64,000 nucleotides of DNA from Candidatus Zhuqueibacterota bacterium (GCA_029261995.1 JAJDAF010000061.1:90219-154218), one strand, 5' to 3'. Positions 7,461 to 40,820 are shown, numbered from the stretch's first letter. The notes: a model not told the origin generated them from the letters alone. A program made the numbers and translations.

Positions 7461-10400
7461 GCTGGTCGCGGGACTCGCGGTTGGCGCGTTGCTACTTCTT
7501 CCTCACGCCATCTTTCCGCAAGCGACACTCGCTGAGCGGGAGTTTCTCTTTGCGCAAAAGCTCTACAATGACGCACTGCATTCGCTCGCGGCTGAACAAT
7601 TGCGTGAATTTGCTGAACGCTTTCCCAATGATAGTCGCGCCGACCATGCACTGCTCATGAGCGGACTGGCCTATGCGGCGGTTGACGAATTTGACAATGC
7701 ATTCGACAGGTTCAAGGCCCTGGAGTTGAGTTATCCACAATCTCAGCATCTAGCGGAATCAAGGTTTCAAATGGCAGCCTGTCAATCTAGTTTGGGAGAA
7801 CACAAAGCGGCGGCGGAGCTGTTTCGGCGCGTGCCGTATTTTCACCCGCAAAGCGATCGTGCCGCGCTTTCCTACCTGAATGCGGGAAGAGCCTACCTTG
7901 CGTCCGCGGACCTGAATGGCGCAGTGTCCAGTTTTATGAAAGTTGCGGCTGACTATCCTGACTCACCGCTGCGGATCGATGCGCAACTTGAGGTCGTGAG
8001 GGCGTACATGGGTATCGACAGCCTCGACAGAGCCATTCATGAAATCGATGGTATTTTTCGTGCATTCGGCTCAGAAGTCAAGGACGCTCGGGTCTACTGG
8101 TTGCGCGGCCAGATATTTGAAGCGCTTGGCAATTTCGACGAGGCTGTCCGGATCTATGAGAAACTCATAGCCTCCTTTCCTGGCGCACAAGAATCCAGGC
8201 TCGCGCAATACCACCTGGCAGACTACAGCAGAAACAAAGGTGACCTATCAGCGGCGTTGTCAAAAGTGGATGCATTCCTGCAAAGCAGAACAGGGGCGGA
8301 CACCCTGCTGACACAAGCCCATTTGCTGCGAGGCGACATTCTCGCCGCCGACGAAAAACCTGACGACGCGATCGATGCGTATCGCCAGGCTCTCGATGGT
8401 GCTCCAAGTGACTTGCGAGCTGAACTGGGTTATAAGATCGCCAGGCAAATGATGTTGGGCGGCAATCTTCAAGGCGCCAGGCAGGCATTGTCTCAGGTGG
8501 TCCATGGAGCAAATGAAAACGATGCGTCCGAACAGCGCACCAAAGGCTATCTTAATGACGCATATCTCATGTTCATTGATGTCACAGCTCAGATGGGTCA
8601 GACCGGAGACGCGTTGCGCTTTGCGTCCGAGTACAAGCGTCGCTTTGCTGGCAGCGAGAACATGCCAGGTGTTTTGTTTCGGGAAGCAAGAATAATCGAA
8701 AATGGGGCCACCGACTACACGCGGGCCCAACGTGCATACCAGACTGTCCTTGACACGTTTCCCGGGTGCTACTGGGTCGATGAATCAAAAGCGGCAATCG
8801 GACGCTGTTATGAGAAACTGGGTGAGTATCGCCTGGCTCTGGTCGAATACCAGGACTATCTCCGCAGGTTTCCCGCCGGTGATGAATATGATGTAGTCGC
8901 CGAGAAAGCGGACCTCATCGCACGTACTGTCCAATTGCAGCCACAGGCTGGAAACGCAGGGTTCGCGCGCATCCTGAGTCAGGGCGTGTCAGGAATTGAA
9001 CCTGCGAAATTGGCTCTTGAACTCGGCAAGGTTCACCTGAAAGCAAAGGGATTTGACAGTGCCATCGCCATGCTGCACCAGGCTATGGCTGAGGCAGCGC
9101 CGAATGGTGACGATTTGGTCCTGCCCGAAACTCAGTTTTATCTGGGACAGTCTCATCTTCTCAAGGCGCAACGACTGCAACTCGCCGGCGATGATGCCGG
9201 TCGCGCCGCGCACACCGACAGCGCCGTTTCCGCGTTCCACCTGCTACAGTCCAGCTTTCCGGAGAACGACCATTTCGCGGAGACGCAGCTCAGACTCGTC
9301 GAACTTGCGCTTACGCGTCAGGATTCACTGCTCGCAAGCCAGGATGCTCTCGGCATTCTGAAGACCTGGGATGCGGACTACCCGCAGCACGGAGGGAGCG
9401 AAGCCATTCTTAATTCGCTGGCCGACGGCTATTTTGACCTGGTCGTGGCAGGGGACTCAACCCTGGCCGATTCCGCTGTCAAGTACTATGAAGAAAGCCT
9501 CAGGCGGTTTCCCGAGCAGAATTCAACCAACAAAATCGTCTTCAACATGGCCAGGATTTGGGAAACCAGTGGGCGGGACTCGCTTGCGCTACAGGCCCTG
9601 AATTCTGTTTTATCGACGAATATGAGCGCGTCTGACCACCAGACTGGCCCGGCTTTGCTGTTGCGGTCGGCCATCCTGCGCCGTTCAGGGCAGTTGGATG
9701 CAGCACGCAATGACTTGCGCAAAGTTGAACGCGAGTTCTTCTATTCTGACATCGCGAAACAGGCCCGAATTGCGTTGGCTGAGTTGGAGTTTGAACGTGG
9801 CAACTACCAGTCCGCTCTCGACCTCTACCGGCGCCACCTCCGGGACAATAGGCTCGACAAATCCGACACACATGCCGCCGCGGCAGATGCCGGGAGCATT
9901 TACATGCAGGCCAGGTCTCTCGACATGCTTGGGCTTTTCGATGACGCCCTTTCTTCCTATCTGGAATTCCTGCGAACGCATCCGACGGCTGAGTTGGCTG
10001 AAGCCGCGAGACTGGCTGTCGCGAGAATCGCCGCACTACGTGGCAATAAAACATTTGCGGCCGAATATTACCGCGCTGTTCTGGATGGCGGCCGCGCGAT
10101 CTCAAGCCGATTTCAAGCCGCCATGGCGCTGGGTAGTTTCAAGTTTGAACAGAAACTCTATCAGGATGCGAGAGAACGGTTTCAGGTTGCACTGTCTCTT
10201 GCTGGGCAACCTGAAATGTCGAGACAAGCTGAAAGAGAAATCATCCGGTGTGGCTATCGGTTGCGAGAGTTTGCAGCAGCCGACGCGGCAGTCAAGTCGT
10301 TCAAAAAAGCATATCGGGACACCAAGAAAGACGAGGCGCAGTTTCTGCTCGACAAGGCAGAAACCTACAAGGTGAGCAAGCGTTTCGAACTGGCGCGCAA

Positions 10401-11344: not shown

Positions 11345-11944
11345 GTGCAATTGATGCAATCTAACAATGAAAAAGATGTCCTGGCTTGCGTTCAGAGATC
11401 TTTAGAAGGCGATTCGCGGGCCTTCGACCAACTTGTCAAGACCTTTCAGAAGCGTGTCTATTTTACGATTTTGCAAATGGTTATGAATCACGATGATGCT
11501 GACGATGTTTTGCAAGAGACGTTCATCAAGGCTTACACAAAGCTGAACACGTTTGATTCGAGCTACCCGTTCTACCCGTGGCTCTATCGCATCGCGGTGA
11601 ACACTGCATTGAATCATCAGAAAAAGAAAACCCGGTTGCGTGCTTTATCTCTGGATGATTTGGATGGCAATAACCATCAAGCTGACCTGGCAGAGGCGCC
11701 GCCGCAAATGGATGAAATGCAGGGAAGCGAACTGGTTGAGAGCCTTAGAAGAGCACTGGAACGAATTCCGTTCGAGCAGCGGACGGTCTTCATGCTTCGC
11801 GTCAACGACGGTTTGAGTTATCAGGAAATCAGCGAGACACTGGAAATTTCGATTGGAACTGTCATGTCTCGGCTTTCACGAGCCCGGGAGAAACTGCGGC
11901 ATTTGCTACAAGGATATCTGGAAACAAAAGACATTGAGGTTTGA
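11345..11944 (+). CDS. RNA polymerase sigma factor, ECF (sigma-24) subfamily
   Basis: 199-aa ORF; region 2 motif (DDADDVLQETFIKAY, YPWLYRIAVN) and region 4 helix-turn-helix (LSYQEISETLEISIGTVMSRLSRAREKL). Confidence 0.85.
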   Translation: MQLMQSNNEKDVLACVQRSLEGDSRAFDQLVKTFQKRVYFTILQMVMNHDDADDVLQETFIKAYTKLNTFDSSYPFYPWLYRIAVNTALNHQKKKTRLRALSLDDLDGNNHQADLAEAPPQMDEMQGSELVESLRRALERIPFEQRTVFMLRVNDGLSYQEISETLEISIGTVMSRLSRAREKLRHLLQGYLETKDIEV

Positions 11945-11950
11945 ATTGCC

Positions 11951-13054
11951 ATGAACGATTGTTTGTACAAATGCAAAATTGAGTCCTTGCTAGATGGAAG
12001 GCTCACTGGGCACGACATGGATGATGTGTCCCAACATGTTCAGACTTGCTCGGCTTGCCAGGCCGAGTTGCACGTACTTGAACAGGTTGATGACTTGTTT
12101 CGGAGTAATCGAGACAACATATTTCCGCAGCCATCTTACCAATACTGGCAAGACGCTTCTGCTGGAATTGCCCGCAGGATTGAGAAGCAGAGAACGCCTG
12201 TCGTGCGCTGGCAAGCTCGTGGCGTCCAGGAATTCGCCGCCCGGCTGATGGCAATGCTTGAACCATCACCTGTCAGGCTAGGATTGGTTGGGTTGGCATC
12301 TCTGGCCTTGCTTGTGGTGCTGCTGGGTCGCAATCAGATGCCGCCGGCCGGGCTTGATATGGCCGCACCCGACGATTCCATGCCGACAATTGCGACGCCT
12401 CTTCACCTTTCAGATGCAGAAACCCAGCCGCCAGACCAGGGACCATCTGAAGTGCTGGCGGTCATCGCGACACCGGATGTCTCCGCGAAGCTAGTTAGCA
12501 ATGATCTGCCTGCGTCAATCAAAGCCATGCCGTGGTCTGAGCCTGTAGCGGTGGCCGTACGTGGGCCATTATTCCGGCGTCCGGCGCCTGTTCGTGAATT
12601 GATGCCAGTGCCGGCCCCCGCCTTCATCATGCTTGATGAAGAGAATCTGGATGGCGATGACTTGAGTGCGCCGCCAAGCGCGGTGGCCCTGAAGGTTAAA
12701 GGCCGACGCAAATCGCAAAGCGTGACTTCGGATGAGCAGGTCTCACCGCTGCCTGTAAACGAGAGTGACTTTGCGGAAACCATGTGGATAGTACAGGAGA
12801 GCAGGACGCTGGCCGAGAAGAAGAACATTTGGCTCTCTTATGTTACCAGGGAAAAGAATCCAACCTACCAGAAGATGGGCTACTACAACCTGGCGCTGGT
12901 GCTGGCCAATCTTGTTCACGAGACAAAGGACCCTGTACTTGCTCAGGATGCGATTGATTTCTATGTGGAGCACGAAGCTGCTTTACGCCCCCAGATGAAA
13001 GATCAGCGCTACAATCGGAAACTCAGTGCGCTCAGAACGATTGCCCAACCCTAG
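11951..13054 (+). CDS. Anti-sigma factor, zf-HC2 type, single-pass membrane protein
   Basis: 367-aa ORF 7 bp downstream of the ECF sigma gene; N-terminal H-x3-C-x2-C motif (HVQTCSACQ) and one transmembrane segment (LGLVGLASLALLVVLLG). Confidence 0.6.
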   Translation: MNDCLYKCKIESLLDGRLTGHDMDDVSQHVQTCSACQAELHVLEQVDDLFRSNRDNIFPQPSYQYWQDASAGIARRIEKQRTPVVRWQARGVQEFAARLMAMLEPSPVRLGLVGLASLALLVVLLGRNQMPPAGLDMAAPDDSMPTIATPLHLSDAETQPPDQGPSEVLAVIATPDVSAKLVSNDLPASIKAMPWSEPVAVAVRGPLFRRPAPVRELMPVPAPAFIMLDEENLDGDDLSAPPSAVALKVKGRRKSQSVTSDEQVSPLPVNESDFAETMWIVQESRTLAEKKNIWLSYVTREKNPTYQKMGYYNLALVLANLVHETKDPVLAQDAIDFYVEHEAALRPQMKDQRYNRKLSALRTIAQP

Positions 13055-13067
13055 TGATGGTCTAGCC

Positions 13068-15176
13068 ATGAAGTACAAGAATTGGCAATCAGTTTTTATC
13101 CTTGCGCTGATGTTATCTGCTTCGGCTTTGACATCGATTGTCGGCGCCCAAGGCTTCATTGTGCCTTTTTCGGGAAGCACGCTGACTCCCAGCCTTATTC
13201 AGCAAAATACGACCATCACATTGCAGGGGAACCATGCGGACGTGCTAATCCGCCAGACCTTTCAAAACCCTCACGATCTGACCATCGAAGGATTTTATTT
13301 GCATCCCTTGCCGACAGAGGCCGAAGCCGGTTCCGTCGTGCTCGAAATCAAAGGGAGGGGCTTTCGGGGTCAAGTACTTGACCAAGCGACTGCGAACGAC
13401 ATTTACGTTGAACGCTTTCGAAAGACCGGCAACCGCGCTTTTCTGACGATGATTCAGAACCGCCTTTACAAGGTCCGGGCATATCCGTTTTTTGCCGGCC
13501 AGAAGCTCGAACTTCGCCTGGCATACTCGATGAAATTGACTCATGATCCTTCAGGGCAGCGAAAACTGACCTATCCGCTGTACTCTCCCGGAGTGCCGCA
13601 GCAAAATGCGGCTCTGGACGCAAATCCGCGCTACAGGTTTGCTTCCAGCAGGATATCCACCGCAGGTCATTTCGGCAGCACCACGGCCACATCCGGAAAT
13701 TTCCAAAAGAGCCTGACAATCGAGATTTCAGATCAGGCAGAGGTCGGAGGGATATATTCCACCACTCATGCCATCAAAATTGACCGTATAGACAAGCATT
13801 CCGCGCGAATCCGTGCGGACGTGACCAATCCCGTGCTGGACAAGGAGTTTGTCCTTTACACTGGAACGAGGGAGAAGGATATCGACATCAATATCCTGAG
13901 TCGCGCTGCTCAGGGTGGGGTAGATGGGTATTTCGTTGCCACAATCTCACCAGACTGGACCGTCTCAGAGCGGCAAGCTGTTCCCAAGGATGTCGTTTTC
14001 ATACTTGACCTTTCTAATGCAATGCAAGCACAGCGGCTCAATAGAAGTAAAGATGCGCTTGAATACTGTATTGCCAACTTAAACAAAACTGACCGTTTTA
14101 ACATTATTACGTTTGCTACGGACGTTCGACTATTTCAAAAGAGGCTTGTTCCTGTTGGGGAATACCGTGCAGATGGTCTGGCATTCTTGCGCGATTTGCG
14201 TCCAAGGGGCGGCGCAAATATGCACAGCGCCATCCTCACGGCGCTCAGCTTAAAGGGAGAGCCTGGCCGTGAGTCGCGCACTATCATTCTGTTGACCGCA
14301 GGCGCGCATACGGTTGGCGTTACTGATCCATCTCAAATTGCGAATGATATTGAAGCCCTGAATGTCGGGGGCTATCGAATCTATGCGTTCAATGTCGGTA
14401 GCGGCGCCAGCGACCAACTGCTCAGCCGAGTCAGTCAAATCAGTGGCGGGGATGAACACCATGTGCCAGCCACTGCCGACATCGTATCTGTTGTTGCCAA
14501 GTTTTATGACTCCATCGATCTGCCCGTCATGTCCGCGCCTAGAATCACATTTTCCGGCCTGGAAATATACGATGTCTACCCGGCGCGTTTACCATCCGTG
14601 GTTGCCGGTCGGCAACAGCACGTTGCGGGAAGGTTCAAAGGCTCTGGCAGGTTGACCGCGATACTGTCAGGGCTGGCGCTAGCCGGACAGCAGGACTTCA
14701 CCTGTGAAACGGAGGTCGGAGGCGAATCTTCCGGCAACGATACGGCTTTGCCGGCCATTTGGGCCCGAATGAAGATGGCCTCGCTGCTGGATGACCCGCC
14801 TCGCTCTGATCAAAAAGCATCGCGCTCGACGCAGTCCGGATCATTCATTCAGCGTGGTGAAAAGAAACGGCCCAATGGCTCTGCTGCGAGTGAGCTGGCG
14901 TTGCAACGAATCCGCCACGTCAACGACAGAGTGTTTCGCCGCACCCCGCAAGGCGGTTGGCTCGAGGGCGGACTTTCGGTCGAAGCGTCTCAAGCCAGAG
15001 ATACGCGGCATATCATCTACCGCAGCCAGGAATACTACGACTATGTCCAAGGAAACCCAGCAGCCGCCCAATATCTAGCCATTGGACCTAACGTTCTTTT
15101 TCAATTTGACAATACTTTAATAAAAATAGACGAACAGATTTCGCCGGAAGGTCGTATCATAACCAGCGACAACTGA
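13068..15176 (+). CDS. Secreted VIT plus von Willebrand factor A (VWA) domain protein
   Basis: About 702 aa from ATG 13068 (track ORF starts 13026). Signal peptide, VIT-like N-terminal region, VWA MIDAS-type motif (VVFILDLSNAM ... ITFATD). Confidence 0.7.
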   Translation: MKYKNWQSVFILALMLSASALTSIVGAQGFIVPFSGSTLTPSLIQQNTTITLQGNHADVLIRQTFQNPHDLTIEGFYLHPLPTEAEAGSVVLEIKGRGFRGQVLDQATANDIYVERFRKTGNRAFLTMIQNRLYKVRAYPFFAGQKLELRLAYSMKLTHDPSGQRKLTYPLYSPGVPQQNAALDANPRYRFASSRISTAGHFGSTTATSGNFQKSLTIEISDQAEVGGIYSTTHAIKIDRIDKHSARIRADVTNPVLDKEFVLYTGTREKDIDINILSRAAQGGVDGYFVATISPDWTVSERQAVPKDVVFILDLSNAMQAQRLNRSKDALEYCIANLNKTDRFNIITFATDVRLFQKRLVPVGEYRADGLAFLRDLRPRGGANMHSAILTALSLKGEPGRESRTIILLTAGAHTVGVTDPSQIANDIEALNVGGYRIYAFNVGSGASDQLLSRVSQISGGDEHHVPATADIVSVVAKFYDSIDLPVMSAPRITFSGLEIYDVYPARLPSVVAGRQQHVAGRFKGSGRLTAILSGLALAGQQDFTCETEVGGESSGNDTALPAIWARMKMASLLDDPPRSDQKASRSTQSGSFIQRGEKKRPNGSAASELALQRIRHVNDRVFRRTPQGGWLEGGLSVEASQARDTRHIIYRSQEYYDYVQGNPAAAQYLAIGPNVLFQFDNTLIKIDEQISPEGRIITSDN

Positions 15177-23584: not shown

Positions 23585-23958
23585 CGGAAAGAAAAAAAGG
23601 GACTGGCAGGTGTTCGAAGTAGCAGCGCTCAGATGTTGTTTGCCAGTCCCCGGGGTGCTTGATCTCCTCGAAAGATGCTATGCCGAAGGTGGGAGGTGGA
23701 GATCAAAGTCTTGTTGTCTTTCTGGAAATCCATTTCCTGACAAGCAATCATGAAGTGGGTTTATCTATTTCAAGGATTGCTCAGCCAAAGACATTCCTGT
23801 CCGTTAAAAGAACAATCTACCCATGGCAAGTCTTGTGCCAACTTGGAACACATTTCATAAGTCATGTAAAATCAATGTGCTACACTCCTGCAGTCAAGCG
23901 TTTTCCGTGGAGTTCCCTGATTGAGACTGAAACAGGTGTCTTGAATTGAAACACGGGG

Positions 23959-24300
23959 CTACTTTTCCAGCACAAGGGAATCACGCCTTGCTTTAACGCG
24001 CTCAAGCCGGCCAATCACCTTCGAGATGATCCCTAACCACACTCTCGGTGTGGCGTGCAGTTTGCTGATTGACGAGTCGAGTGCTTCCCCTGCGGGTGTA
24101 TCTGGGCTGTTCAGTGTTACGTCTAATCGTCCGACAGAATCCACCTCACTTGATGTATCCGTAGCGGCAAGCACGATTTGGGTGTAAGTCTCTACGAATT
24201 GCTCCGACGGTAGCTCTTTACGCCCAAGGTCATCTTTTGTGCATGCTGATATGCCGATTGCAAGTGCGACAAGTGCCCAGCCGATGCTTCCAGATTTCAT
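23959..24300 (-). CDS. Hypothetical small lipoprotein
   Basis: 113-aa ORF with signal peptide and lipobox-like LAIGISAC; no recognisable family. Confidence 0.4.
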   Translation of the reverse strand: MKSGSIGWALVALAIGISACTKDDLGRKELPSEQFVETYTQIVLAATDTSSEVDSVGRLDVTLNSPDTPAGEALDSSISKLHATPRVWLGIISKVIGRLERVKARRDSLVLEK

Positions 24301-24371
24301 CGATCTCTTTCTCCTGGATTGTGTAAACGGTAAATGTATGAAAACATTGGAATGCAGTCAATAGAATAACC

Positions 24372-24400
24372 TTGACTTTATTGGGTAGATTTGATATTTT
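24372..24400 (+). promoter_or_regulatory. Candidate sigma-70-type promoter upstream of radA
   Basis: TTGACT (24372-24377), 17-nt spacer, TATTTT (24395-24400), about 37 bp upstream of the radA start. Confidence 0.3.
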
Positions 24401-24436
24401 TGCGTTTGTTCTGAATGACAAGCGAGAGCAGGGGCA

Positions 24437-32393: not shown

Positions 32394-33311
32394 ATGACCG
32401 ACCTGCTGCAGGAGTTTCTTGCCTTTTTGAGGATAGAGAGGAACGCGTCTCCCAATACTGTCGATTCATACGAAACGGATCTTCATCGTTACATCCATCT
32501 TCTGGAAGATGCGGGAATTGACTCACTTCCGGAGGTCACGCCCGCTCACATCACGAACATTCTTGGAAAACTTCAAGCAGCGGGCCTTGCTCACACATCT
32601 ACCGCCCGCAATCTATCGGCCATTCGGATGTTCCACCGGTTTGCGGTCAGTGAAGGGCATGCCGAGAACAATCCCACGAGTGAGATTCGATTTCCCAAGC
32701 TATCGCGGTACCTTCCGCACGCTTTGAGTCAAATCGAAATTGAGGCAATTCTGGAGCAAGCGGACCCAGCCGACCACAAAGGGTTAAGGGACCGAGCCAT
32801 GTTGGAATTTGTTTACGCAGCTGGGCTGCGGGTTTCCGAACTGCTTTCCACTGAAATTGCAAATATCTTCTTCAAACAAGGATTCGTGCGCGTTGTTGGC
32901 AAGGGCAACAAGGAAAGGCTGGTGCCTGTTGGCGGGCAAGCCATCTACTACACAGACAACTACATCAAGCAAGTCCGGCCCCGGATCGCCAGGGCTGGCA
33001 TATCCGGAGACACGGTCTTTCTGAACTTGCGTGGAGGCCGGTTGAGCCGCATGGGCTTCTGGAAAATTCTCAGAGGCTACTCCACGCTCGCGGGTATCGA
33101 AAACGTCTCACCACACACGCTACGCCACTCCTTTGCTACACATCTTGTTGAAGGCGGCGCTGACTTGAGAGCTGTTCAAGAGATGTTAGGGCATAGCGAC
33201 ATCTCAACCACTCAGATTTACACCCATCTCGACCGGGAATATCTTAAGGAAGTCCATCGGACGTTTCACCCAAGGGAGAAATACGGAGACGGGCGGCGTA
33301 CCGATTCCTGA
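32394..33311 (+). CDS. xerD: Tyrosine recombinase XerD
   Basis: 305-aa ORF; N-terminal core-binding region and C-terminal catalytic block HTLRHSFATHL ... LGHSDISTTQIYTHL, closely matching the XerD pattern. Confidence 0.8.
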   Translation: MTDLLQEFLAFLRIERNASPNTVDSYETDLHRYIHLLEDAGIDSLPEVTPAHITNILGKLQAAGLAHTSTARNLSAIRMFHRFAVSEGHAENNPTSEIRFPKLSRYLPHALSQIEIEAILEQADPADHKGLRDRAMLEFVYAAGLRVSELLSTEIANIFFKQGFVRVVGKGNKERLVPVGGQAIYYTDNYIKQVRPRIARAGISGDTVFLNLRGGRLSRMGFWKILRGYSTLAGIENVSPHTLRHSFATHLVEGGADLRAVQEMLGHSDISTTQIYTHLDREYLKEVHRTFHPREKYGDGRRTDS

Positions 33312-33498
33312 GCATAGGGCGATTGGCTCTGGGTGTATTCAAGTTATTCCCATCTACAGTCTTAGGGCGGCGCTTAGGTAATCCTAACCGGTCTGGTGGT
33401 CATTTTTCAACCATATCGGTCGTTTCCAGCCAGTCCGCTTCTTTCTGCGGCAACCACTAACTGCCATAATCTAAGTAGTTTACTTGGACTTCCATGTA

Positions 33499-33514
33499 CG
33501 GCACATGTGTTGCA
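33499..33514 (+). promoter_or_regulatory. Candidate sigma-54 (-24/-12) promoter upstream of the sigma-54 activator gene
   Basis: cGGCACa-tgtg-tTGCA with GG and GC at the canonical 10-nt offset, about 50 bp upstream of ATG 33564; overlaps a CACATGTG palindrome. Confidence 0.3.
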
Positions 33515-33563
33515 CACACCATGAGACTGCGGTGTACACACTTCGAAACGCGAATAGGTAGCC

Positions 33564-34961
33564 ATGCACGTGCCATCCATACTTGTCGTCGATGATGAGC
33601 CAATGATCAGCGGAATGCTTGAGAAAGTTCTCAAGCGCAAGCATTACAACGTGAAGATCGCTGACAGTGGTAAACTTGCCCTTGAATCATTGCACGACGG
33701 TGAATTCGATCTTGTCATAACCGATGTTTACCTTCCTGATTACAATGGAATGGAGATCCTGCGCAAGGCAAAACAAGCTGATCCAAGCACCGGTGTCATC
33801 GTGATCACGGCTCATAGTTCGGTCGAGAGTGCGGTGGAGGCGATGAAGGTTGGAGCTTATGACTATTTAACCAAAGGCTTTTCTTTAGATGAAATCGAGC
33901 TTACCGTTGAGAAGTTTTTCAAGTATCAGCGTCTGGTCAAGGAGAATGAACTGCTTCGCTCAGAACTCGGCTCGAGGTACGGAATAGAAAACATCATTGG
34001 CAACAGCCCGGAAATGCAGAATGTTTTCGAGATTGTCGAGATGGTTGCGCCGAGCAACGCAACGGTGCTGATTCAGGGGGCTAGCGGTACCGGAAAAGAA
34101 CTGATAGCAAAGGCTCTGCATCAGAAGAGTCATCGGAGGGACAGGCCGCTCGTGAAAACAAACTGCGCCGCCATCCCGGAAGGACTTGTCGAAAGTGAGT
34201 TGTTCGGCCACGAAAAGGGAGCTTTCACCGGCGCGTTGCGCACGACCAAGGGTCGCTTCGAAATGGCGGACGGTGGCACGCTTCTCCTCGACGAGATAAG
34301 CGAAATAACTCCTAACCTGCAAGCAAAGCTCCTCCGTGTGCTGCAGGAGAAAGAGTTCGAGCGGGTAGGTAATCCCGAAAGCGTACGGGTTGATGTACGC
34401 ATCATCGCTACCACCAATAGCGAGGTGCCAGACGAGATAGCAAAAGGGAATTTCCGCGAAGATCTCTATTATCGATTAAACGTCGTTCCGATTCACCTTC
34501 CCAGTTTGAAGGAGCGCCGGGAGGATATCCCTCTCCTGGTTGAGCATTTTTTCGAAAAATATACTGCGGAAAACAAAAGGTCGATTGATGGTATCGAGCA
34601 GTCAGCACTCGACCAGTTGATGCAGTATGATTGGCCCGGGAACGTACGCGAGCTTGAGAACACGGTCGAGCGTGCTGTTGTCATCTGTAGGGACAAGCAT
34701 ATCGGGCCCCAGCATATCTATTTTGGTAGTAACGGTAGGAAGTTTGTCGCCGCTGGCAAAAGACCGCCATCTGACAACCCGAATGACCTCCAATCCGAGG
34801 CCACAACCCTGCGAGCAATGGAAAAGCAACTCATTCTCAAGACCCTTTCGGAAGAGAATAATAACCGTACCCGCTCAGCTAAAAAATTGGGTATTAGTGT
34901 TCGAACATTGCGAAACAAGCTCCAAGAATACCGGCGCGAAGATGACCGTGATGAGCCCTAA
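33564..34961 (+). CDS. Sigma-54-dependent response regulator (NtrC family enhancer-binding protein)
   Basis: 465-aa ORF; REC domain, AAA+ domain with Walker A GASGTGKE and the GAFTGA sigma-54 contact motif, C-terminal Fis-type HTH. Confidence 0.9.
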   Translation: MHVPSILVVDDEPMISGMLEKVLKRKHYNVKIADSGKLALESLHDGEFDLVITDVYLPDYNGMEILRKAKQADPSTGVIVITAHSSVESAVEAMKVGAYDYLTKGFSLDEIELTVEKFFKYQRLVKENELLRSELGSRYGIENIIGNSPEMQNVFEIVEMVAPSNATVLIQGASGTGKELIAKALHQKSHRRDRPLVKTNCAAIPEGLVESELFGHEKGAFTGALRTTKGRFEMADGGTLLLDEISEITPNLQAKLLRVLQEKEFERVGNPESVRVDVRIIATTNSEVPDEIAKGNFREDLYYRLNVVPIHLPSLKERREDIPLLVEHFFEKYTAENKRSIDGIEQSALDQLMQYDWPGNVRELENTVERAVVICRDKHIGPQHIYFGSNGRKFVAAGKRPPSDNPNDLQSEATTLRAMEKQLILKTLSEENNNRTRSAKKLGISVRTLRNKLQEYRREDDRDEP

Positions 34962-35194
34962 CCTCGTCTAGGAAATAATGTTCATCGCTCGGCAATTTCT
35001 TCCGCCTCAGTAGCCCATCTTGTTGTCCTTCCCCCTGTTCAGTCCTGCACATCACCATAGCGCCAGGTATTCACTTGGCACATAAGAACAATCATGTAAG
35101 TTCCTGAATATAAACATGATGGGCTCGTGCTGCTTGGTGAATACCGCATGTCACTCCCGCGTGCAAATCAACATCTGGTATTGGGCTTCCGACA

Positions 35195-35210
35195 TGGCAT
35201 GGATGTTGCG
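35195..35210 (+). promoter_or_regulatory. Candidate sigma-54 (-24/-12) promoter upstream of the FliA-like sigma gene
   Basis: TGGCATG-gatg-TTGCG, one mismatch to the TGGCACG-N4-TTGCW consensus, located about 50 bp upstream of ATG 35261. Confidence 0.4.
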
Positions 35211-35260
35211 TTTTCGCGCCCGTCCACGTCAAATGTCTGAACTTAAGAGGAGTGAGTGGC

Positions 35261-36028
35261 ATGAAGGCATCTTCGTATAACTACAAGCTCTGGACGGAAT
35301 ATACGGCTCACAGAAACCCCCAGATTCGAGAGAGGCTGCTGGTGACCTACCTGCCGTTGGTCAAGTATGTCGCTGGCAAGATGATGTTCTCTCTTCCGAC
35401 GTGCGTTGACTACAATGATCTGTTGAGCGCTGGCGTCATGGGACTCATTGGGGCCTTGGAACGATTCAAGCCCGAGCAAGGGGTCAAATTCGAAACCTTT
35501 GTCTTGCCAAGAATAAGGGGGGCAATCCTTGATGAACTCAGGACGCTTGACTGGGCGCCCCGCTCACTACGATCAAAAGCAAGGCTGGTTGAAAAGGCCA
35601 ATGAGCAACTGCAGAAAGACTTGGGAAGGTCGGCAGCTAGTCACGAGATCGCAAGAAAACTTGACATGGACGTTGGTGAGTATGGTGGCGTGCTCATGGA
35701 GCTGTCCAAGGCATCTTTACTTTCTCTGGATGGGAGCAGGGTAGATGACACCGAACAGCTCACTTCAATGTACGACCTTCTGGAAAACCCACAGTCCGAC
35801 AATCCGCTGCGCCGCATAGAGAATTCCGAACTCAAGGGCCTTCTCGTAGGCGCAATTGAGAGACTTAACGAGCAAGAAAAAATTGTGATGGCATTGTACT
35901 ATTATGAGGAACTTACGCTGAAAGAGATTGGGCAGGTGCTCAGCATTACGGAGTCCCGGGTCTCCCAAATACACAGCAAGGCCCTTGAAACGCTCAAGGG
36001 CTCACTTGAGACGGAAGTCCTTAACTAA
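35261..36028 (+). CDS. fliA: RNA polymerase sigma factor, FliA/WhiG (sigma-28) family
   Basis: About 255 aa from ATG 35261 (AAGAGGAG SD upstream; track ORF begins at GTG 35252); region 2 (YLPLVKYVAGKM, RIRGAILDELR) and region 4 HTH (LTLKEIGQVLSITESRVSQIHSKAL). Confidence 0.7.
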   Translation: MKASSYNYKLWTEYTAHRNPQIRERLLVTYLPLVKYVAGKMMFSLPTCVDYNDLLSAGVMGLIGALERFKPEQGVKFETFVLPRIRGAILDELRTLDWAPRSLRSKARLVEKANEQLQKDLGRSAASHEIARKLDMDVGEYGGVLMELSKASLLSLDGSRVDDTEQLTSMYDLLENPQSDNPLRRIENSELKGLLVGAIERLNEQEKIVMALYYYEELTLKEIGQVLSITESRVSQIHSKALETLKGSLETEVLN

Positions 36029-36043
36029 AACGCGCCAAGTCAT

Positions 36044-36532
36044 ATGATTATGATGCAAAAGGATTCTTGTACAGAAAAGATTTGGGCAGGACAGCTCAAC
36101 CAGTTCATGGCTCAACTGAAAGAGAAGGTGGAGTTCGAGTCCGGTAGCCTATTTGTCTTTGATTCAGACAACGACACGCTGAAGGAAGTCACAAAGGCAG
36201 GAGACGGGATCGACTTTATCAGTTCTATCGCATTTCCGATGGGCAAAGGTCTTTCGGCCTGGGTTGCCCAAAAGGGCAAAATGGTCTATCTGCCAGACAT
36301 ACACCGGGGTAGCCGACATGGTCTGAATCCGATACGGTCATACCTGTCGATACCGCTTGAGGCGAATAATTGCATAACCGGTGTTCTGAATCTTGGCCAT
36401 ACAAGCCCGAATGCCTTTGACGACCCGGCCATGCAAACAATTCAGTCGCGATGCCGGGACATCGCCCGCAAAATCTATAATCATCGGTACTTAAACTTCA
36501 TAGACTATGAAGAAGACAATCTTACTCATTGA
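36044..36532 (+). CDS. GAF domain-containing protein
   Basis: 162-aa ORF; sequence pattern consistent with a stand-alone GAF-like sensor fold, no output domain. Assignment by pattern only. Confidence 0.45.
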   Translation: MIMMQKDSCTEKIWAGQLNQFMAQLKEKVEFESGSLFVFDSDNDTLKEVTKAGDGIDFISSIAFPMGKGLSAWVAQKGKMVYLPDIHRGSRHGLNPIRSYLSIPLEANNCITGVLNLGHTSPNAFDDPAMQTIQSRCRDIARKIYNHRYLNFIDYEEDNLTH

Positions 36533-37550
36533 CGACGACCGTGATATTCACGTTCGCACCAAGATGATTATTGAGGGGGCAGGGTACCAGTTCTATTCAG
36601 CCATGACCGGGCTGGATGGTGTTGAGGCAGCCAAGCAGTTCAAACCAACCCTTATAATCCTGGATTATTGCATGCCTGGCCAGGACGGCCTGACAACATA
36701 TAAACATCTGAGCAAACAACCTGAGCTGCAAAACGTACCCGTCGTGATGCTCAGCGCTGCAACCCACTCAAACTCGGAGATCAAGGCAATTCTGGAATGC
36801 GGGATCAACGCCCGCCTGCAGAAGCCTTTCGGGCCAAGAGAGTTGCTAAATGTCGTCGAGAATATCCTCGTTATCAATGAGATAAACATCAAGAACCACG
36901 AACTGAGATTGACTCTGGAGAGAAGTAAAGACTTTCTCCAAAATCTTGTCGATAGCTGTCCGGTGGTCATTCTCACGGCAGACCTCCAGGGCAGGATCAA
37001 ATACGCAAACAAACCTGTTAAAGAGATCCTCGGCTACGAGCCTGACGAGTTGCCGGGCATGCTCCTAAGCACGATATTTGGCGAAGTGCCTGACCAGGCC
37101 CCCTGGCGCCAATCATCCGGGAAAAGACTTCAGGAGGGCGTTGTTGAGTACGAAGTGCAAACCAAAGGAGGATGGACTGTCCCGTTGGGGCTTACATTTT
37201 CTCACTTGCTGGATTTCAATAGTAACGTCCTGGGCATTCTGGCTATTGGGCAAGACCTTTCTGCCAAGAAACAGTTGGAAAAGGAACTGCTCGAGAAGGA
37301 GAGGTTACGTGCCATCACTGATTCGTTGGCCACAATCAATCACAAAATCAACAACCCTCTGACTCCAATCCTGGGGAATATCCAGCTGATACGCCAGGAT
37401 GAGTCTCAATTTGCGAAAGGCCACAGAGAAAAACTGGAGACAATTGAGGTGAACGCCCGCAAGATCTGTGAAGTTATCAAAAGCTTCAACAGATTGACCA
37501 ATCCAACCACGCAGACGTACTACGGCAATGCTAACTTGATAGAAGTCTGA
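36507..37550 (+). CDS. Response regulator receiver - PAS - HisKA protein lacking an HATPase domain
   Basis: 347-aa ORF; REC domain (IDDD, phosphoacceptor in ILDYCMPG, conserved K in LQKP), central PAS-like region, H-box INHKINNPLTPILG; only about 70 aa follow the H-box so no ATPase domain is present. Confidence 0.7.
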   Translation: MKKTILLIDDDRDIHVRTKMIIEGAGYQFYSAMTGLDGVEAAKQFKPTLIILDYCMPGQDGLTTYKHLSKQPELQNVPVVMLSAATHSNSEIKAILECGINARLQKPFGPRELLNVVENILVINEINIKNHELRLTLERSKDFLQNLVDSCPVVILTADLQGRIKYANKPVKEILGYEPDELPGMLLSTIFGEVPDQAPWRQSSGKRLQEGVVEYEVQTKGGWTVPLGLTFSHLLDFNSNVLGILAIGQDLSAKKQLEKELLEKERLRAITDSLATINHKINNPLTPILGNIQLIRQDESQFAKGHREKLETIEVNARKICEVIKSFNRLTNPTTQTYYGNANLIEV

Positions 37551-37571
37551 GGTTTACACACAACAACATGG

Positions 37572-38027
37572 ATGTTGAACATGAAGCCAAGCAAGATGCC
37601 ATACGTAACCCTACTCGCAGTACTCCTACTGACGGCTCACGAGACACCGGCCTTGAATTGGGCACAGGCCACGAAGGGACATCAGCCATTGCTTTCCATA
37701 AAGCTGCGGGCACGATCAACGGTTCTCGGGCCTGGGATCACTTTGGGGGATGTAGCCCGCATTGTCATGGATGACGCGGTGCAAAGCAGGCGAGTCAGAT
37801 CTATCAAGATTGGAGAGGCGCCACCACCGGGGGAGTCGACTGAGATTTCCTTGACCTACATCAAAAAGTGCATAGAATCTTCAGGTTTTGGTGAACTCGT
37901 GGAGCACATCAGCGGCCCACGAAACCTGAGGGTGATAACCGCTCACAGGGAAATTGACAAGGCGTTTCTGAAAGAGAACCTGGCCCATGCCTACAGCCAC
38001 ACAGAGCATGGCATGAGCGACGTTTAA
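37572..38027 (+). CDS. Hypothetical protein with N-terminal signal/anchor segment
   Basis: 151-aa ORF, hydrophobic N-terminus (YVTLLAVLLLTA); same reading frame as the upstream REC-PAS-HisKA ORF, separated by a TGA. Confidence 0.4.
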   Translation: MLNMKPSKMPYVTLLAVLLLTAHETPALNWAQATKGHQPLLSIKLRARSTVLGPGITLGDVARIVMDDAVQSRRVRSIKIGEAPPPGESTEISLTYIKKCIESSGFGELVEHISGPRNLRVITAHREIDKAFLKENLAHAYSHTEHGMSDV

Positions 38028-38089
38028 ATTAAGAACTGAATATGCTTATTTTATCTTGTTTATTTTGGGAAATATGCTTATTATTTTCC

Positions 38090-38102
38090 TTACGTCACGT
38101 AA
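38090..38102. promoter_or_regulatory. Perfect palindrome TTACGT-C-ACGTAA upstream of csrA
   Basis: 13-bp palindrome about 65 bp upstream of the csrA ATG, flanked by two AATATGCTTATT direct repeats (38039-38050 and 38071-38082). Confidence 0.25.
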
Positions 38103-38167
38103 GCACAAAAAAAATAGACATCTAAAATGAACTTTCGGCATCAAGGCACTAACCCGAGGAAAGTAAT

Positions 38168-38380
38168 ATGCTTGTCCTGACACGGAAGTTAGGTGAAACA
38201 ATCGTCATCGGAGATGACATCATCATAAAGGTCGTTGATATCCACGGCAAACAGATTCGCTTGGGCATTGAAGCACCCACCGAAATCAGCATTTTCAGAG
38301 GGGAAATTTACGAGCGAATTCTAGAAGAGAACAGGAAAACTGTTGAGGACAACCAAGACGGCAAGGAGGGAGGGGAATAG
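38168..38380 (+). CDS. csrA: Carbon storage regulator CsrA
   Basis: 70-aa ORF MLVLTRKLGETIVIGDDIIIKVVDIHGKQIRLGIEAP, the hallmark CsrA/RsmA sequence. Confidence 0.9.
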   Translation: MLVLTRKLGETIVIGDDIIIKVVDIHGKQIRLGIEAPTEISIFRGEIYERILEENRKTVEDNQDGKEGGE

Positions 38381-38582
38381 ATCTTCCACCGCGCTTCAGT
38401 TGTCGACAACATACAGCCCTTTCCCCACAAGCACCGAACTACTCCCCCGTTTTCATGATAGAAGACACGGTGAAGCGTACTGGCAATACGGATTCTTTGT
38501 AGTTTGTCATGGTCTGATATTGTCATATTCGATAGCTTGATGCATCTGCATCAGAACAGGAAGTCTGGAGAAAAATAACGAC

Positions 38583-39980
38583 TTGGCACCCCCATCTGAA
38601 CATACCAAAGATTTCTCAGTCGTATTGCGACTCTCCTCTTTTGCTGATCTTGATGGCCAGCTTGACGAGTCTCAGCCCGAAGAAGAAAGCGCCCCCGTCA
38701 TTCAAAGTTTCTTTCAAAATCGCTACGGTGATGGTGGAGGCAAACTACACGTTCAGCGCAAACAATCAAAAGTACGCCTGGTCTGGCATCAGTCTCGGTA
38801 CGAGCCGGAGGCTGAGCTAGCTCATCGGTCAGCGTTAGACTGTGCTAAGCAGAAGAATTTCAAGGACGCAATCAACCACTGGGTGAGAGCAATTTCCATA
38901 AACCCATCCGATCCAGACTACTATTTCAACCTAGGGATCGCCTTTTTTGAAAAGAAGAACTTCCAGGAGGCTGTAGAAAACCTGCAACATGCCATCACGT
39001 TGTGCCCCATCTATTACAAGGCGCACTTGATTTTAGGGACCGTTTACCTGAAGATCCGCAAGTTTGACAGGGCAGAGGAGTATCTTCGAGAAAGTCTGAT
39101 CTTCTATCCAAATCATCCTCTTGCCTATTTGAACCTTGGTGCCGTCTACAGCATTCTCAAACGGTATGATGAAGGCGTCTCTATGTTCCTAAGATGTATT
39201 GAACTCTCCGCGAACGAAGTCAGGGCCCACTTTGGCTTAGCGAAAATCTATTCCTTACGAGGGGAGTCGCAATCTGCAAACCGCTACTTTAAGAATGTCA
39301 TCGAAATAAACACAAGCCCAACACTTACAAATCACGCTAAGCGTGCCATTGTTGCGGTTGCCGGTCCAGAAGCGGGAAGCGGACCCACTTCAGAAGCCCC
39401 GGTCAATGTCCATGAAGGAAATGTTGAAAAGTACTACCAGCTCGGCTACGCTTCATTTCTCAATTCCGACTACGAAGCTGCCGCGAAAATGTACTCAGCC
39501 TATCTTAGTCTCAAAACAAATGATGATTTTGTATGGTATTCATTAAGCCAGGCCCTGCTAAGATCCGGTAAAGCCCCGCAAGCATGCGACGCGTTGGCCA
39601 AAGCCATTGGCATTAACGCCAGCAAGGGCTTGTACCGCAAGGAATTGGCAATCGCCTACTCCTACAGTAATCAAGACACAAATGCCATAGACTGCCTTAA
39701 GGAAGCTGAAAAACTCGGTAAAGTTGACAGCGCAATGTACGCTCTTTGGGGTAAACTTCTTCTGCAACAAGGCGACTCTGAGCACGCTATTGAGAAACTT
39801 GAAAAGGCTCTGAGTCTGGACACCAACAACTTGCTGGCGAGATACAATCTCGCTTTGGCAGCACTAAACGCTAATGATAGAGATCAGGCTCTTAGCTATC
39901 TGCACGACATCCTGCGCACTCCCGTTAAAAGCCCACTCAAAATGGAAGCAGAACAACTGCTCGCCAAGATATCCGGTTAA
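38583..39980 (+). CDS. Tetratricopeptide-repeat protein
   Basis: 465-aa ORF (TTG start in track; true start uncertain) with multiple canonical TPR units (e.g. AINHWVRAISINPSDPDYYFNLGIAFFEKKNFQEA). Confidence 0.65.
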   Translation: MAPPSEHTKDFSVVLRLSSFADLDGQLDESQPEEESAPVIQSFFQNRYGDGGGKLHVQRKQSKVRLVWHQSRYEPEAELAHRSALDCAKQKNFKDAINHWVRAISINPSDPDYYFNLGIAFFEKKNFQEAVENLQHAITLCPIYYKAHLILGTVYLKIRKFDRAEEYLRESLIFYPNHPLAYLNLGAVYSILKRYDEGVSMFLRCIELSANEVRAHFGLAKIYSLRGESQSANRYFKNVIEINTSPTLTNHAKRAIVAVAGPEAGSGPTSEAPVNVHEGNVEKYYQLGYASFLNSDYEAAAKMYSAYLSLKTNDDFVWYSLSQALLRSGKAPQACDALAKAIGINASKGLYRKELAIAYSYSNQDTNAIDCLKEAEKLGKVDSAMYALWGKLLLQQGDSEHAIEKLEKALSLDTNNLLARYNLALAALNANDRDQALSYLHDILRTPVKSPLKMEAEQLLAKISG

Positions 39981-40067
39981 AAATTTAAGCACCAGCGAAA
40001 AAGCAGAAGAAAGAAGCACAGGAAAAATTTCGTGTATAACATATATTATGTAAACTTATATATGTAA

Positions 40068-40087
40068 CACCTACTCTGATGTAGGTG
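40068..40087. terminator. Hairpin between the TPR gene and tRNA-Pro, possible terminator
   Basis: CACCTAC-tctgat-GTAGGTG inverted repeat followed on the plus strand by a T-rich tract (ATCTTTGTATTCT). Confidence 0.3.
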
Positions 40088-40116
40088 ATCTTTGTATTCT
40101 GCGGAATTTTACATGG

Positions 40117-40193
40117 TGGTCGGGGCGCCCGGATTCGAACCGGGGGCCTCCACGTCCCGAACGTGGCGCGCTAACCGGGCTGCGCTACGCCCC
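40117..40193 (-). tRNA. tRNA-Pro (anticodon CGG)
   Basis: 77-nt minus-strand cloverleaf read by eye: acceptor stem CGGGGCG/CGCCCCG, D-arm GCGC-AGCCCGGTTA-GCGC, anticodon arm CCACG-TTCGGGA-CGTGG, T-arm CCCGG-TTCGAAT-CCGGG, discriminator A and encoded CCA. Confidence 0.85.
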
Positions 40194-40208
40194 GAAATCT
40201 CAAACGAG

Positions 40209-40820
40209 CTAAATGAAAAATTTTATTAGCACGAAGCCTGCAATTAACAAAACTGCGAACAAAAAAGCAAGCAAATTGAAATATCTATCGATAAATTCCT
40301 TAATGGGTGCACCAAATCGCCAAATAAGTCCTGCCACAAGAAAAAACCGCGCTGCTCTCCCTATGGCTGATGCCAAAACAAATCCCCCGAAATTGAGGCC
40401 GAAAACGCCGCTTGACACCGTGAAAATCTTGTATGGAATGAACGTGAATCCAGCCGTAAAAACTATGAGAAATCCATGCAAATCGTAGAGAGCTTGCACG
40501 TCCGCAAATCTGTGTCTGGTAAAACCGGGTATGTATTGAAAGAAAAAATCTCCAGCCAAAGTCCAGAATTGATAGCCAATCAAATAGCCGAACATGCCCC
40601 CCGCAAGCGAACCAACGGAACAGATCGCCGCAAAATAGAATGCTCTCCTTCTGGCTGAGATGGCTAGCGCAATTAGCAAAATATCTGGGGGAATCGGAAA
40701 GAAAGATGATTCGGCAAATGCCAGCACGAATAAGGCAAGTGCCCCATATGGTGAGTTTGCCCATGAAAGCACCCAATCATACAACCGCCTGATGCGACTC
40801 GTATTTTCCTGCATAATCAC
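40209..40820 (-). CDS. DedA/YqaA family membrane protein
   Basis: 203-aa polytopic ORF with the family region FAESSFFPIPPDILLIALA; stop codon lies 15 nt upstream of the tRNA-Pro 5' end on the same strand. Confidence 0.65.
   Translation of the reverse strand: MIMQENTSRIRRLYDWVLSWANSPYGALALFVLAFAESSFFPIPPDILLIALAISARRRAFYFAAICSVGSLAGGMFGYLIGYQFWTLAGDFFFQYIPGFTRHRFADVQALYDLHGFLIVFTAGFTFIPYKIFTVSSGVFGLNFGGFVLASAIGRAARFFLVAGLIWRFGAPIKEFIDRYFNLLAFLFAVLLIAGFVLIKFFI

Follow-up and report, generated by a model that had tools for sequence, protein, structure and literature searches.

The flagellar sigma factor FliA (sigma-28) controls late flagellar genes through promoters of the form TAAA-N15-GCCGATAA and has FlgM as its anti-sigma factor. 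Other sigma factors of the FliA family, such as WhiG of Streptomyces and the sigma-28 of Chlamydia, have non-flagellar regulons. In the enteric Ntr system (glnAp2-glnL-glnG), a sigma-54 promoter stands before the activator's own gene and provides positive autoregulation. FlrA, a flagellar master regulator, has no phosphorylatable receiver domain. Together with sigma-54 (RpoN), FlrA activates early genes including fliA in Vibrio cholerae (PMC3930126). Receiver-type activators paired with a kinase (FlgSR, FlrBC, FleSR) drive the rod/hook operons of polar flagellates of the FlhF/FlhG type (PMC7064773), and the fliA gene of Pseudomonas is reported to be independent of both sigma-54 and FleSR (PMC7064773, PMC3930126). 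The locus described here comes from a stretch of 64,000 nucleotides (nt) from Candidatus Zhuqueibacterota bacterium (GCA_029261995.1, JAJDAF010000061.1:90219-154218); the whole of this stretch is called the window, and coordinates are counted from its first letter. In it the gene for an NtrC-type activator is followed directly by that for a FliA-like sigma factor (both identities, as given in the original prediction, are confirmed by Pfam domains and by the TIGR02479 score), and each gene is preceded by a -24/-12 element of the sigma-54 type, P1 and P2 respectively (Table 1). The best explanation, and in our judgment a fairly probable one, is that P1 drives the activator gene and P2 drives a four-gene fliA operon, which would make up a sigma-54 to sigma-28 cascade, most likely flagellar.

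P1 reads cGGCACATGTGTTGCA (GG at 33500-1, GC at 33512-3) and P2 reads TGGCATGGATGTTGCG (GG at 35196-7, GC at 35208-9). When placed on the pattern TGGCAC-N5-TTGCW, both P2 and P1 (CGGCACATGTGTTGCA) keep the register GG-N10-GC, and the start codons that follow (ATG 33564 for the activator, ATG 35261 for the sigma factor) lie 51-52 nt downstream of each GC dinucleotide. The near-consensus element that the original prediction placed about 50 bp before the FliA-like gene is therefore correct in position, strand and register. The element before the activator gene, described there as a second and weaker one, is likewise right in location and register, but its conservation equals that of P2. Agreement with a consensus is unremarkable by itself in a window of this size. 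With up to two mismatches to TGGCAC-N5-TTGCW allowed, the window has 26 matches against 40.6 expected; a stricter sigma-54 pattern gives 3 matches on both strands, where about 1 is estimated by chance. These counts are within chance and not significant, so independent support is needed before the elements can be taken for promoters.

That support comes from relatives. The sigma factor's nearest relatives are in uncultured KSB1/Calditrichota-like genomes, and a scan of species-representative genomes supplied a syntenic set made up of the window and of L001-L007, uncultured KSB1 genomes whose FliA is 75-89% identical to that of the window. L001-L007 share the gene order orf144, xerD, (birA), activator, fliA, GAF, REC/PAS/HisKA, orf151, csrA, TPR, where orf151 is an open reading frame (ORF) of 151 amino acids. 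P1 and P2 each lie upstream of the same gene in all eight genomes, which amounts to 16 occurrences out of 16. P1 is GGCAC-N5-TTGC in seven of the eight and begins with GGCAT in the remaining one. The DNA between the genes has diverged around both elements (38-43% mean column identity). In the alignment of the activator-fliA spacer, with its mean of 38%, the invariant columns include T-G-G-C-A, one spacer G and TTGC. Both promoters are intact in L006 even though they stand much farther from their genes (299 and 195 nt). A count of co-occurrence agrees: among 80 fliA loci retrieved, a strict element within 350 nt upstream of fliA is found in 7 of the 7 with an activator gene directly upstream, as against 2 of the 73 without one. 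It is this conservation in relatives, and not the consensus match, that makes P1 and P2 convincing; together with the co-occurrence it is strong evidence, at the level of sequence, for two functional sigma-54 promoters and for a link of P2 with the activator gene. Nothing resembling a sigma-70 promoter exceeds the shuffled background between 33000 and 38100.

The activator carries all the motifs expected of a working, phosphorylation-dependent activator of sigma-54, and it has the composition of an NtrC-type enhancer-binding protein. Pfam places REC at residues 6-114, the AAA+ domain Sigma54_activat at 144-311, then AAA_lid_14, and a C-terminal helix-turn-helix (HTH) domain, HTH_8, at 415-456. 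Alignment identifies Asp54 (the receiver aspartate), Thr82 and Lys104, a Walker A motif GASGTGKE (172-179), GAFTGA (219-224) and a Walker B motif LLLDE with Asp243-Glu244. The canonical receiver with Asp54 sets the protein apart from FlrA and makes it resemble second-tier regulators; what the locus would have in common with V. cholerae is a sigma-54-dependent activator placed above a sigma-28 gene in a flagellar system of the FlhF/FlhG type. No NCBIfam equivalog model reaches its cut-off (AtoC 494 vs 714; NtrC, TIGR01818, 442 vs 558.6), and models for flagellar activators fall short as well (FlgR, NF049963, 318.7 vs 750; FlbD, NF050807, 386 vs 750), which puts the activator outside the curated flagellar activator families. 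The locus is like that of NtrC in having a sigma-54 promoter before the activator's own gene and a dyad about 100 bp upstream of the -24 element, and is unlike it in the score for TIGR01818, in the lack of an adjacent kinase gene and in its output.

Each promoter has a candidate upstream activator site (UAS). UAS1, before P1, is a box of the TGG-N11-CCA type with a T-rich center that recurs about 85-115 nt before the -24 element in all eight syntenic genomes, and in L006 it moves with the distant P1. Similar boxes are found before two more distant homologs of the activator, namely before the kinase-activator operon of L087 and before the orphan homolog of L089. UAS2 follows the activator stop codon and is the sole conserved block besides P2 in the activator-fliA spacer. 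Its right half, GG[CA]AA[AT]T[TAC][TC]T[GT]CC (the GGCAATTTnTnCC motif), has a single match in the window, and it occurs 180-231 nt before the -24 GG in seven loci (window, L001-L004, L007 and L087), whatever the gene downstream. The absence of a conserved RNA structure rules the block out as a terminator or RNA element. A single dyad shared by P1 and P2 could not be established. As a separate observation on this region, xerD and the activator gene of L001 (7317-8141) have a birA-like biotin ligase gene between them, and the other relatives have a gap of at least 1 kb there. In the window (33312-33563) the birA-like gene is absent and the xerD-activator gap is only 252 bp, yet UAS1 and P1 have been kept.

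More distant relatives suggest where this arrangement came from. Sigma-54 already drives flagellar operons in the KSB1-like group, as TGGCAT-N5-TTGC is found directly before flgF (L011 17022, L008 15386) and fliR (L086 15, L085 4876), and also before flgB (L087 8037); the flagellar hierarchy of the group appears to be largely sigma-54-driven. Homologs of the activator below the window's own clade are 55-60% identical to it. One of them, P0342 of L087, is 57% identical from end to end, with a near-identical HTH helix, and it stands next to flagellar genes in the order PAS-HisKA-HATPase kinase, activator, GGCAATTTTTGCC (7822), TGGCATGCATGTTGCC (8037), flgB-flgC-fliE-fliF-fliG-fliH-fliI-fliJ, and a hook-length-type gene, with UAS2 about 215 nt before the -24 element. 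L087 thus has a kinase beside a sigma-54-dependent rod/hook operon, as do FlgS/FlgR (Campylobacter, Helicobacter), FlrB/FlrC (Vibrio) and FleS/FleR (Pseudomonas). The window has no such arrangement: its kinase is missing, and the target downstream is fliA, not rod/hook genes. In L090 the order is FapA, PAS-HisKA-HATPase kinase, activator, with a GGCAATTATTTCC motif 80 nt before a sigma-54-like element ahead of fapA. Because the unit of activator gene, UAS2 and sigma-54 promoter precedes the flgB operon in L087, it is older than its association with fliA.

The fliA gene has relatives of its own, in which that unit is lacking. In L008, L009 and L011 (FliA 63-67% identical), and also in L012 (61%), there is neither an activator gene nor a sigma-54 element upstream of fliA; L012 has only a GAF match downstream in common with the window. 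In L011, which was annotated in detail, the order is flhA-flhF-flhG-fliA, followed by HDOD, TPR, GAF and REC/PAS/HisKA genes and then flgF-flgG-flgA. By this comparison the window fliA looks like a derivative of an flhA-flhF-flhG-fliA cluster, and the module looks as if it had been moved from a flagellar kinase-activator-flgB operon arrangement to a place before fliA. The window activator appears to have lost its adjacent kinase, and the module to face fliA instead of flgB. The case may be seen as a blend, with an activator of the FlgR/FlrC type (by its domains and the context of its homolog) that is kinase-less and stands directly before fliA. The original prediction had called the activator an orphan without an adjacent histidine kinase. 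This is right in that no complete kinase is encoded at the locus, and needs two qualifications: an ATPase-less REC-PAS-HisKA protein is encoded 1.5 kb downstream, and the activator looks less like an unrelated orphan than like one partner of a flagellar kinase/activator pair that has been left without the other.

The sigma factor belongs to the FliA/WhiG family, as it exceeds the TIGR02479 cut-off and has sigma-70 regions 2, 3 and 4 but not region 1; the equivalog models for WhiG and for FliA remain below their cut-offs. The likeliest start is ATG 35261, which lies 8 nt after a Shine-Dalgarno sequence, AAGAGGAG (35245-35252), whereas the alternative GTG 35252 overlaps that sequence. The closest solved structures are E. 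coli FliA and the chains 6pfv_A and 6pfj_A, both labeled just "RNA polymerase sigma factor" in the search output and here taken to be WhiG. Many columns of regions 2 and 4 are invariant in comparison with the flagellar-cluster FliA proteins of sister lineages (including YYYEELTLxEIG and SESRxSQxH in region 4), so that the same promoter specificity is expected. With WhiG and the sigma-28 of Chlamydia the protein shares its sigma subfamily and a locus without flagellar structural genes; it differs from them in that its lineage appears to be flagellated and in that it groups with flagellar-cluster FliA. No RsiG-like partner was identified.

The transcript from P2 probably covers fliA, the GAF gene, the REC-PAS-HisKA gene and orf151, which are separated by +15, -26 and +21 nt, possibly with read-through from P1; these boundaries are predicted ones. 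Intrinsic terminators were found neither in the activator-fliA spacer nor within the fliA operon, and none rises above background in 33000-40300. Such an operon would differ from the flhA-flhF-flhG-fliA operon of V. cholerae in that fliA is predicted to be co-transcribed with the GAF and REC-PAS-HisKA genes. The GAF gene is syntenic in L001-L007 and lies within flagellar clusters in L008, L009, L011 and L081. The REC-PAS-HisKA protein has the same kinase-less length in all relatives, always with the small GAF protein preceding it, and in the flagellar clusters of L011 (15778-16857) and L008 (14163-15212) its gene comes just before a sigma-54 promoter and flgF. A role as phosphatase or as relay is conceivable. 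A plausible phospho-acceptor His is kept (INHKINNPLTP). The idea that the protein is a remnant of the cognate kinase was rejected, since its PAS-HisKA part has an identity of just 23% with the L087 kinase.

The last gene of the predicted operon, orf151, is the one exception to the otherwise correct statement that the window has no flagellar structural genes. A tblastn search matches residues 65-163 of the L011 FlgA protein to 37692-37988 of the window at 35% identity; the ChapFlgA domain of that FlgA is at residues 237-359. The orf151 product has a hydrophobic N-terminus, and six relatives (L001-L003, L005-L007) keep the ORF intact despite rapid divergence (46-56% identity). Once flgF/flgG were lost from the locus, it may have stayed behind as a remnant or as a re-used domain. 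The next gene, csrA (70 amino acids), has its own conserved promoter of the sigma-70 type, CTTGtt-17-TATTAT (38056-38084; CTTGTA...TATAAT in relatives), and no fliW gene was seen beside it. A local duplication of AATATGCTTATT surrounds csrA (38028-38380).

Table 1. Features of the activator-fliA locus and its surroundings (window coordinates)
Feature	Position	Strand	Remarks
UAS1 candidate, dyad TGGTCATTTTTCAACCA	33397-33413	.	87 nt upstream of the -24 GG of P1
P1, sigma-54 type -24/-12 promoter of the activator gene (cGGCACatgtgTTGCA)	33499-33514	+	GGCA[CT]-N5-TTGC in 8/8 syntenic genomes
NtrC-family response-regulator activator of sigma-54, 465 aa	33564-34961	+	Pfam REC, Sigma54_activat, AAA_lid_14, HTH_8
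UAS2 candidate, bipartite GGAAATAAT-N11-GGCAATTTCTTCC	34971-35003	.	193-225 nt upstream of the -24 GG of P2
P2, sigma-54 type -24/-12 promoter of the fliA operon (TGGCATggatgTTGCg)	35195-35210	+	TGGCA, TTGC and one spacer G invariant in 8/8
FliA/WhiG-family sigma factor, 255 aa	35261-36028	+	TIGR02479 265 bits vs cut-off 189.6; Pfam regions 2, 3, 4
GAF-domain protein, 162 aa, operon gene 2	36044-36532	+	Pfam GAF_2
REC-PAS-HisKA protein without ATPase domain, 347 aa, operon gene 3	36507-37550	+	Pfam Response_reg, PAS, HisKA only
orf151, 151 aa, FlgA N-terminal-like, without ChapFlgA	37572-38027	+	Probably last operon gene
csrA	38168-38380	+	
Upstream housekeeping genes def, fmt, rsmB, PASTA protein, rpe			
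xerD	32394-33311		
TPR protein	38583-39980		
tRNA-Pro	40117-40194	-	
24-kb surface-polysaccharide cluster	40209-63906	-	Pfam/NCBIfam scans of ORFs

The lineage is very probably flagellated and has two fliA-type genes, the flagellar genes lying outside the window. A check for flagella and rpoN is positive for a close syntenic relative, as distinct from the exact genome of the window: L003 (isolate N075bin58, a metagenome-assembled genome), which we take, from matching names and our own reading of GTDB naming, to be GCA_004356825.1 (GTDB N075bin58 sp004356825). GCA_004356825.1 belongs to the GTDB order CR04bin15 and is placed in KSB1 clade IV (PMC9012183). Table S7 of that paper gives it one rpoN, two fliA and three fliC genes and scores as present a flagellar set that is near-complete, with flhA, flhB, fliP, fliQ, fliR, fliF, fliG, fliM, fliN, flgB and flgC, as well as flgE, flgG, flgH, flgI, flgK, flgL, flgA and motA/motB. 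The same table scores rpoN (K03092) as present in 41 of 44 KSB1 genomes, and lists two fliA (K02405) genes in most flagellated genomes of clade IV (PMC9012183). Another KSB1 genome, L081 (GCA_022562855.1), has a cluster fliOPQR-flhB-flhA-flhF-flhG-fliA-HDOD-GAF whose FliA (7713-8474) is 46% identical to the window protein. With this figure set beside the 61-67% of L008-L012 and the K02405 count of two per genome, the phylum seems to contain two FliA lineages. A search with FlhF homologs, which led to three contexts, all in other assemblies, did not find a second fliA or the flagellar cluster of the window's clade.

In the mechanism that we propose, a histidine kinase encoded elsewhere would phosphorylate the activator at Asp54; sister lineages encode a PAS kinase right before the homologous activator. 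The activator would oligomerize on upstream sites, for which the UAS1 dyad and the GGCAATTTCTTCC block of UAS2 are candidates, and through its GAFTGA loop and ATP hydrolysis would open the sigma-54 holoenzyme complex at P2. It would probably do the same at P1, which would be positive autoregulation. FliA, a sigma factor of the sigma-28 type, would then transcribe late flagellar and chemotaxis genes elsewhere in the genome. Speculatively, feedback on the phosphorylation state might come from the GAF and REC-PAS-HisKA proteins, which the same transcript would encode. Every regulatory arrow in this scheme (which activator fires which promoter, the autoregulation, the operon boundaries, the FliA regulon) is one that we infer from what is directly observed, namely motifs, conservation, co-occurrence, domain content and synteny. 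The hierarchy of an activator over an alternative sigma factor, as put forward in the original prediction, is supported at every point that sequence can test (conservation, co-occurrence, activator motifs, the module kept before different operons, and rpoN in most KSB1 genomes).

Several observations weigh against a flagellar cascade of this form. No HATPase homolog is found anywhere in the 64-kb window, so that no cognate kinase is in evidence there. UAS1 and UAS2 are not obviously the same motif, the GG-CC spacing being 11 nt in one and 9 nt in the other, so that a single protein binding both candidate sites is only a possibility. UAS2 lies about 200 nt before the -24 element, a greater distance than for most characterized activator sites; it stays near the activator stop codon and might serve another purpose. 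The homolog in L089, 56% identical, is an orphan in a non-flagellar neighborhood, with TGGCATTATGTTTGCA 220 nt before its start. Promoters for sigma-28 are not apparent in the window, where TAAA-N13-17-CCGATA has 0 matches and GCCGATAA with one mismatch occurs at chance level. The window does not contain rpoN, and the presence of rpoN and of flagellar genes in its own genome is inferred from relatives. Finally, those relatives have two K02405 genes, either of which may serve the late flagellar genes.

The last of these points leads to the strongest alternative, which we nevertheless consider unlikely: a real cascade would end in a second paralog of the FliA/WhiG family with a non-flagellar regulon, such as one for surface polysaccharide/biofilm or for a developmental switch, and the flagella would have a separate fliA. 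This would change the output of the cascade and not its existence. In its favor, flagellar structural genes are missing from the locus, which borders on a 24-kb polysaccharide cluster; the closest solved structures (6pfv_A, 6pfj_A) are taken to be WhiG. The flagellar cluster of L081 encodes a FliA with just 46% identity to the window protein, and most flagellated genomes of clade IV, that equated with L003 among them, have two K02405 genes (PMC9012183 Table S7). Against this, the window FliA is closest (61-67%) to FliA proteins from flhA-flhF-flhG-fliA clusters, with which it also has downstream genes in common, and the high conservation of regions 2 and 4 shared with those proteins argues for the same promoter specificity. 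No promoter like those of sigma-28 or of sigma-54 was found in the polysaccharide cluster.

Somewhat less probable is a scenario in which P1 and P2 are real but are fired by an activator encoded elsewhere (e.g. one of the FleQ/FlrA type), the adjacency to this activator gene being a by-product of rearrangement. The adjacency and co-occurrence of the activator with P2 are only correlative, the two candidate UAS differ in architecture as noted, and the sigma-54 promoters at flgF and fliR in relatives require that those genomes have at least one activator. What speaks for the adjacent activator is that its gene stays with UAS2 and the sigma-54 promoter from lineage to lineage although the downstream operon changes, that the HTH helix is nearly identical in the window protein and in its L087 homolog, and that the promoter at fliA loci without an activator gene comes down to 2 distant matches among 73.

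A bolder scenario, which we regard as improbable, is the following. An activator of the FlgR/FlrC type would have lost its kinase, and its module of UAS and sigma-54 promoter would have been captured by one of two fliA paralogs along with the GAF and kinase-less REC-PAS-HisKA genes. This would give a sigma-54 to sigma-28 switch that reinforces itself, with its phosphorylation input through the ATPase-less protein, a product of the target operon, acting in phosphotransfer or as a phosphatase. Its output would perhaps be other than the classical late flagellar genes, e.g. motility versus the adjacent exopolysaccharide program.

The polysaccharide cluster also figures in a very improbable alternative, in which the activator regulates this neighboring locus, being of the PEP-CTERM PrsR type or similar, with the TPR protein as a PrsT-like partner, and has nothing to do with fliA. 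The cluster encodes a Wzc-like tyrosine kinase and chain-length determinant, an initiating sugar transferase, an aminotransferase, a Wzx flippase and a Wzy-like polymerase, in addition to several GT2 and GT4 enzymes, two FemAB-like proteins and a heparinase II/III-like protein. The activator scores 413.6 bits with TIGR02915 (PEP-CTERM-box response regulator), the TPR protein scores 115 bits with TIGR02917 (PrsT), and the FemAB-like and chain-length-determinant proteins give weak matches to XrtA-associated models. All of these scores, however, are under the curated cut-offs (502.6, 312.2, 260 and 279); a PrsK kinase is lacking, Pfam scans of the window ORFs brought up no exosortase, and the closest informative context of an activator homolog is flagellar (L087). 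We rejected the PrsR/PEP-CTERM reading because of the sub-threshold scores and because no sigma-54 element lies in or before the polysaccharide genes.

That P1 and P2 are chance matches or sites for an unrelated factor is least probable of all, and chance is excluded in practice, because the lack of enrichment of consensus-level matches in the window is outweighed by 16 conserved occurrences out of 16 over eight genomes, with strand and position correct, invariant bases at the sigma-54 contact positions, a variable spacer and an estimated per-region chance probability of about 0.003 for the pattern.

If the sigma-54 to sigma-28 cascade proposed here is true, the uncultured phylum KSB1 joins the bacteria that build flagellar hierarchies on sigma-54. 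Current understanding would not be overturned, as cascades of this fairly ordinary kind are known from polar flagellates and are textbook matter in Vibrio; only the rewiring and the kinase-less REC-PAS-HisKA partner are unusual. The rewiring would be that of a hierarchy in which one activator-plus-promoter module stands before a rod operon in one lineage and before a sigma-28 gene in another. Two promoter sequences and two candidate activator-binding sites can be offered for heterologous testing. For annotation there is a caution that an "orphan" NtrC-type regulator beside fliA is probably a displaced flagellar regulator.

A few observations concern other parts of the window, in which a search against Rfam gave tRNA-Pro as the sole match. 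The best consensus match for sigma-54 in the window is TGGCACAAGACTTGCC, on the minus strand at 23825-23840, within the 850-bp gap between hisS and radA (23585-24436). About 215 nt downstream of this match is a strong terminator hairpin that is bidirectional (23600-23652), and the gap also holds an ORF on the minus strand for a lipoprotein-like product (23959-24300). The interval folds somewhat better than shuffled sequences (z = -2.1) and contains an ORF of 40 codons; it could correspond to a small sigma-54-dependent transcript. At 11345-15176 a gene for a sigma factor of the extracytoplasmic function type is followed by genes for a 367-aa protein without a family match and for a VIT/VWA-domain protein, which may represent a sigma/anti-sigma module unrelated to the activator-fliA locus.

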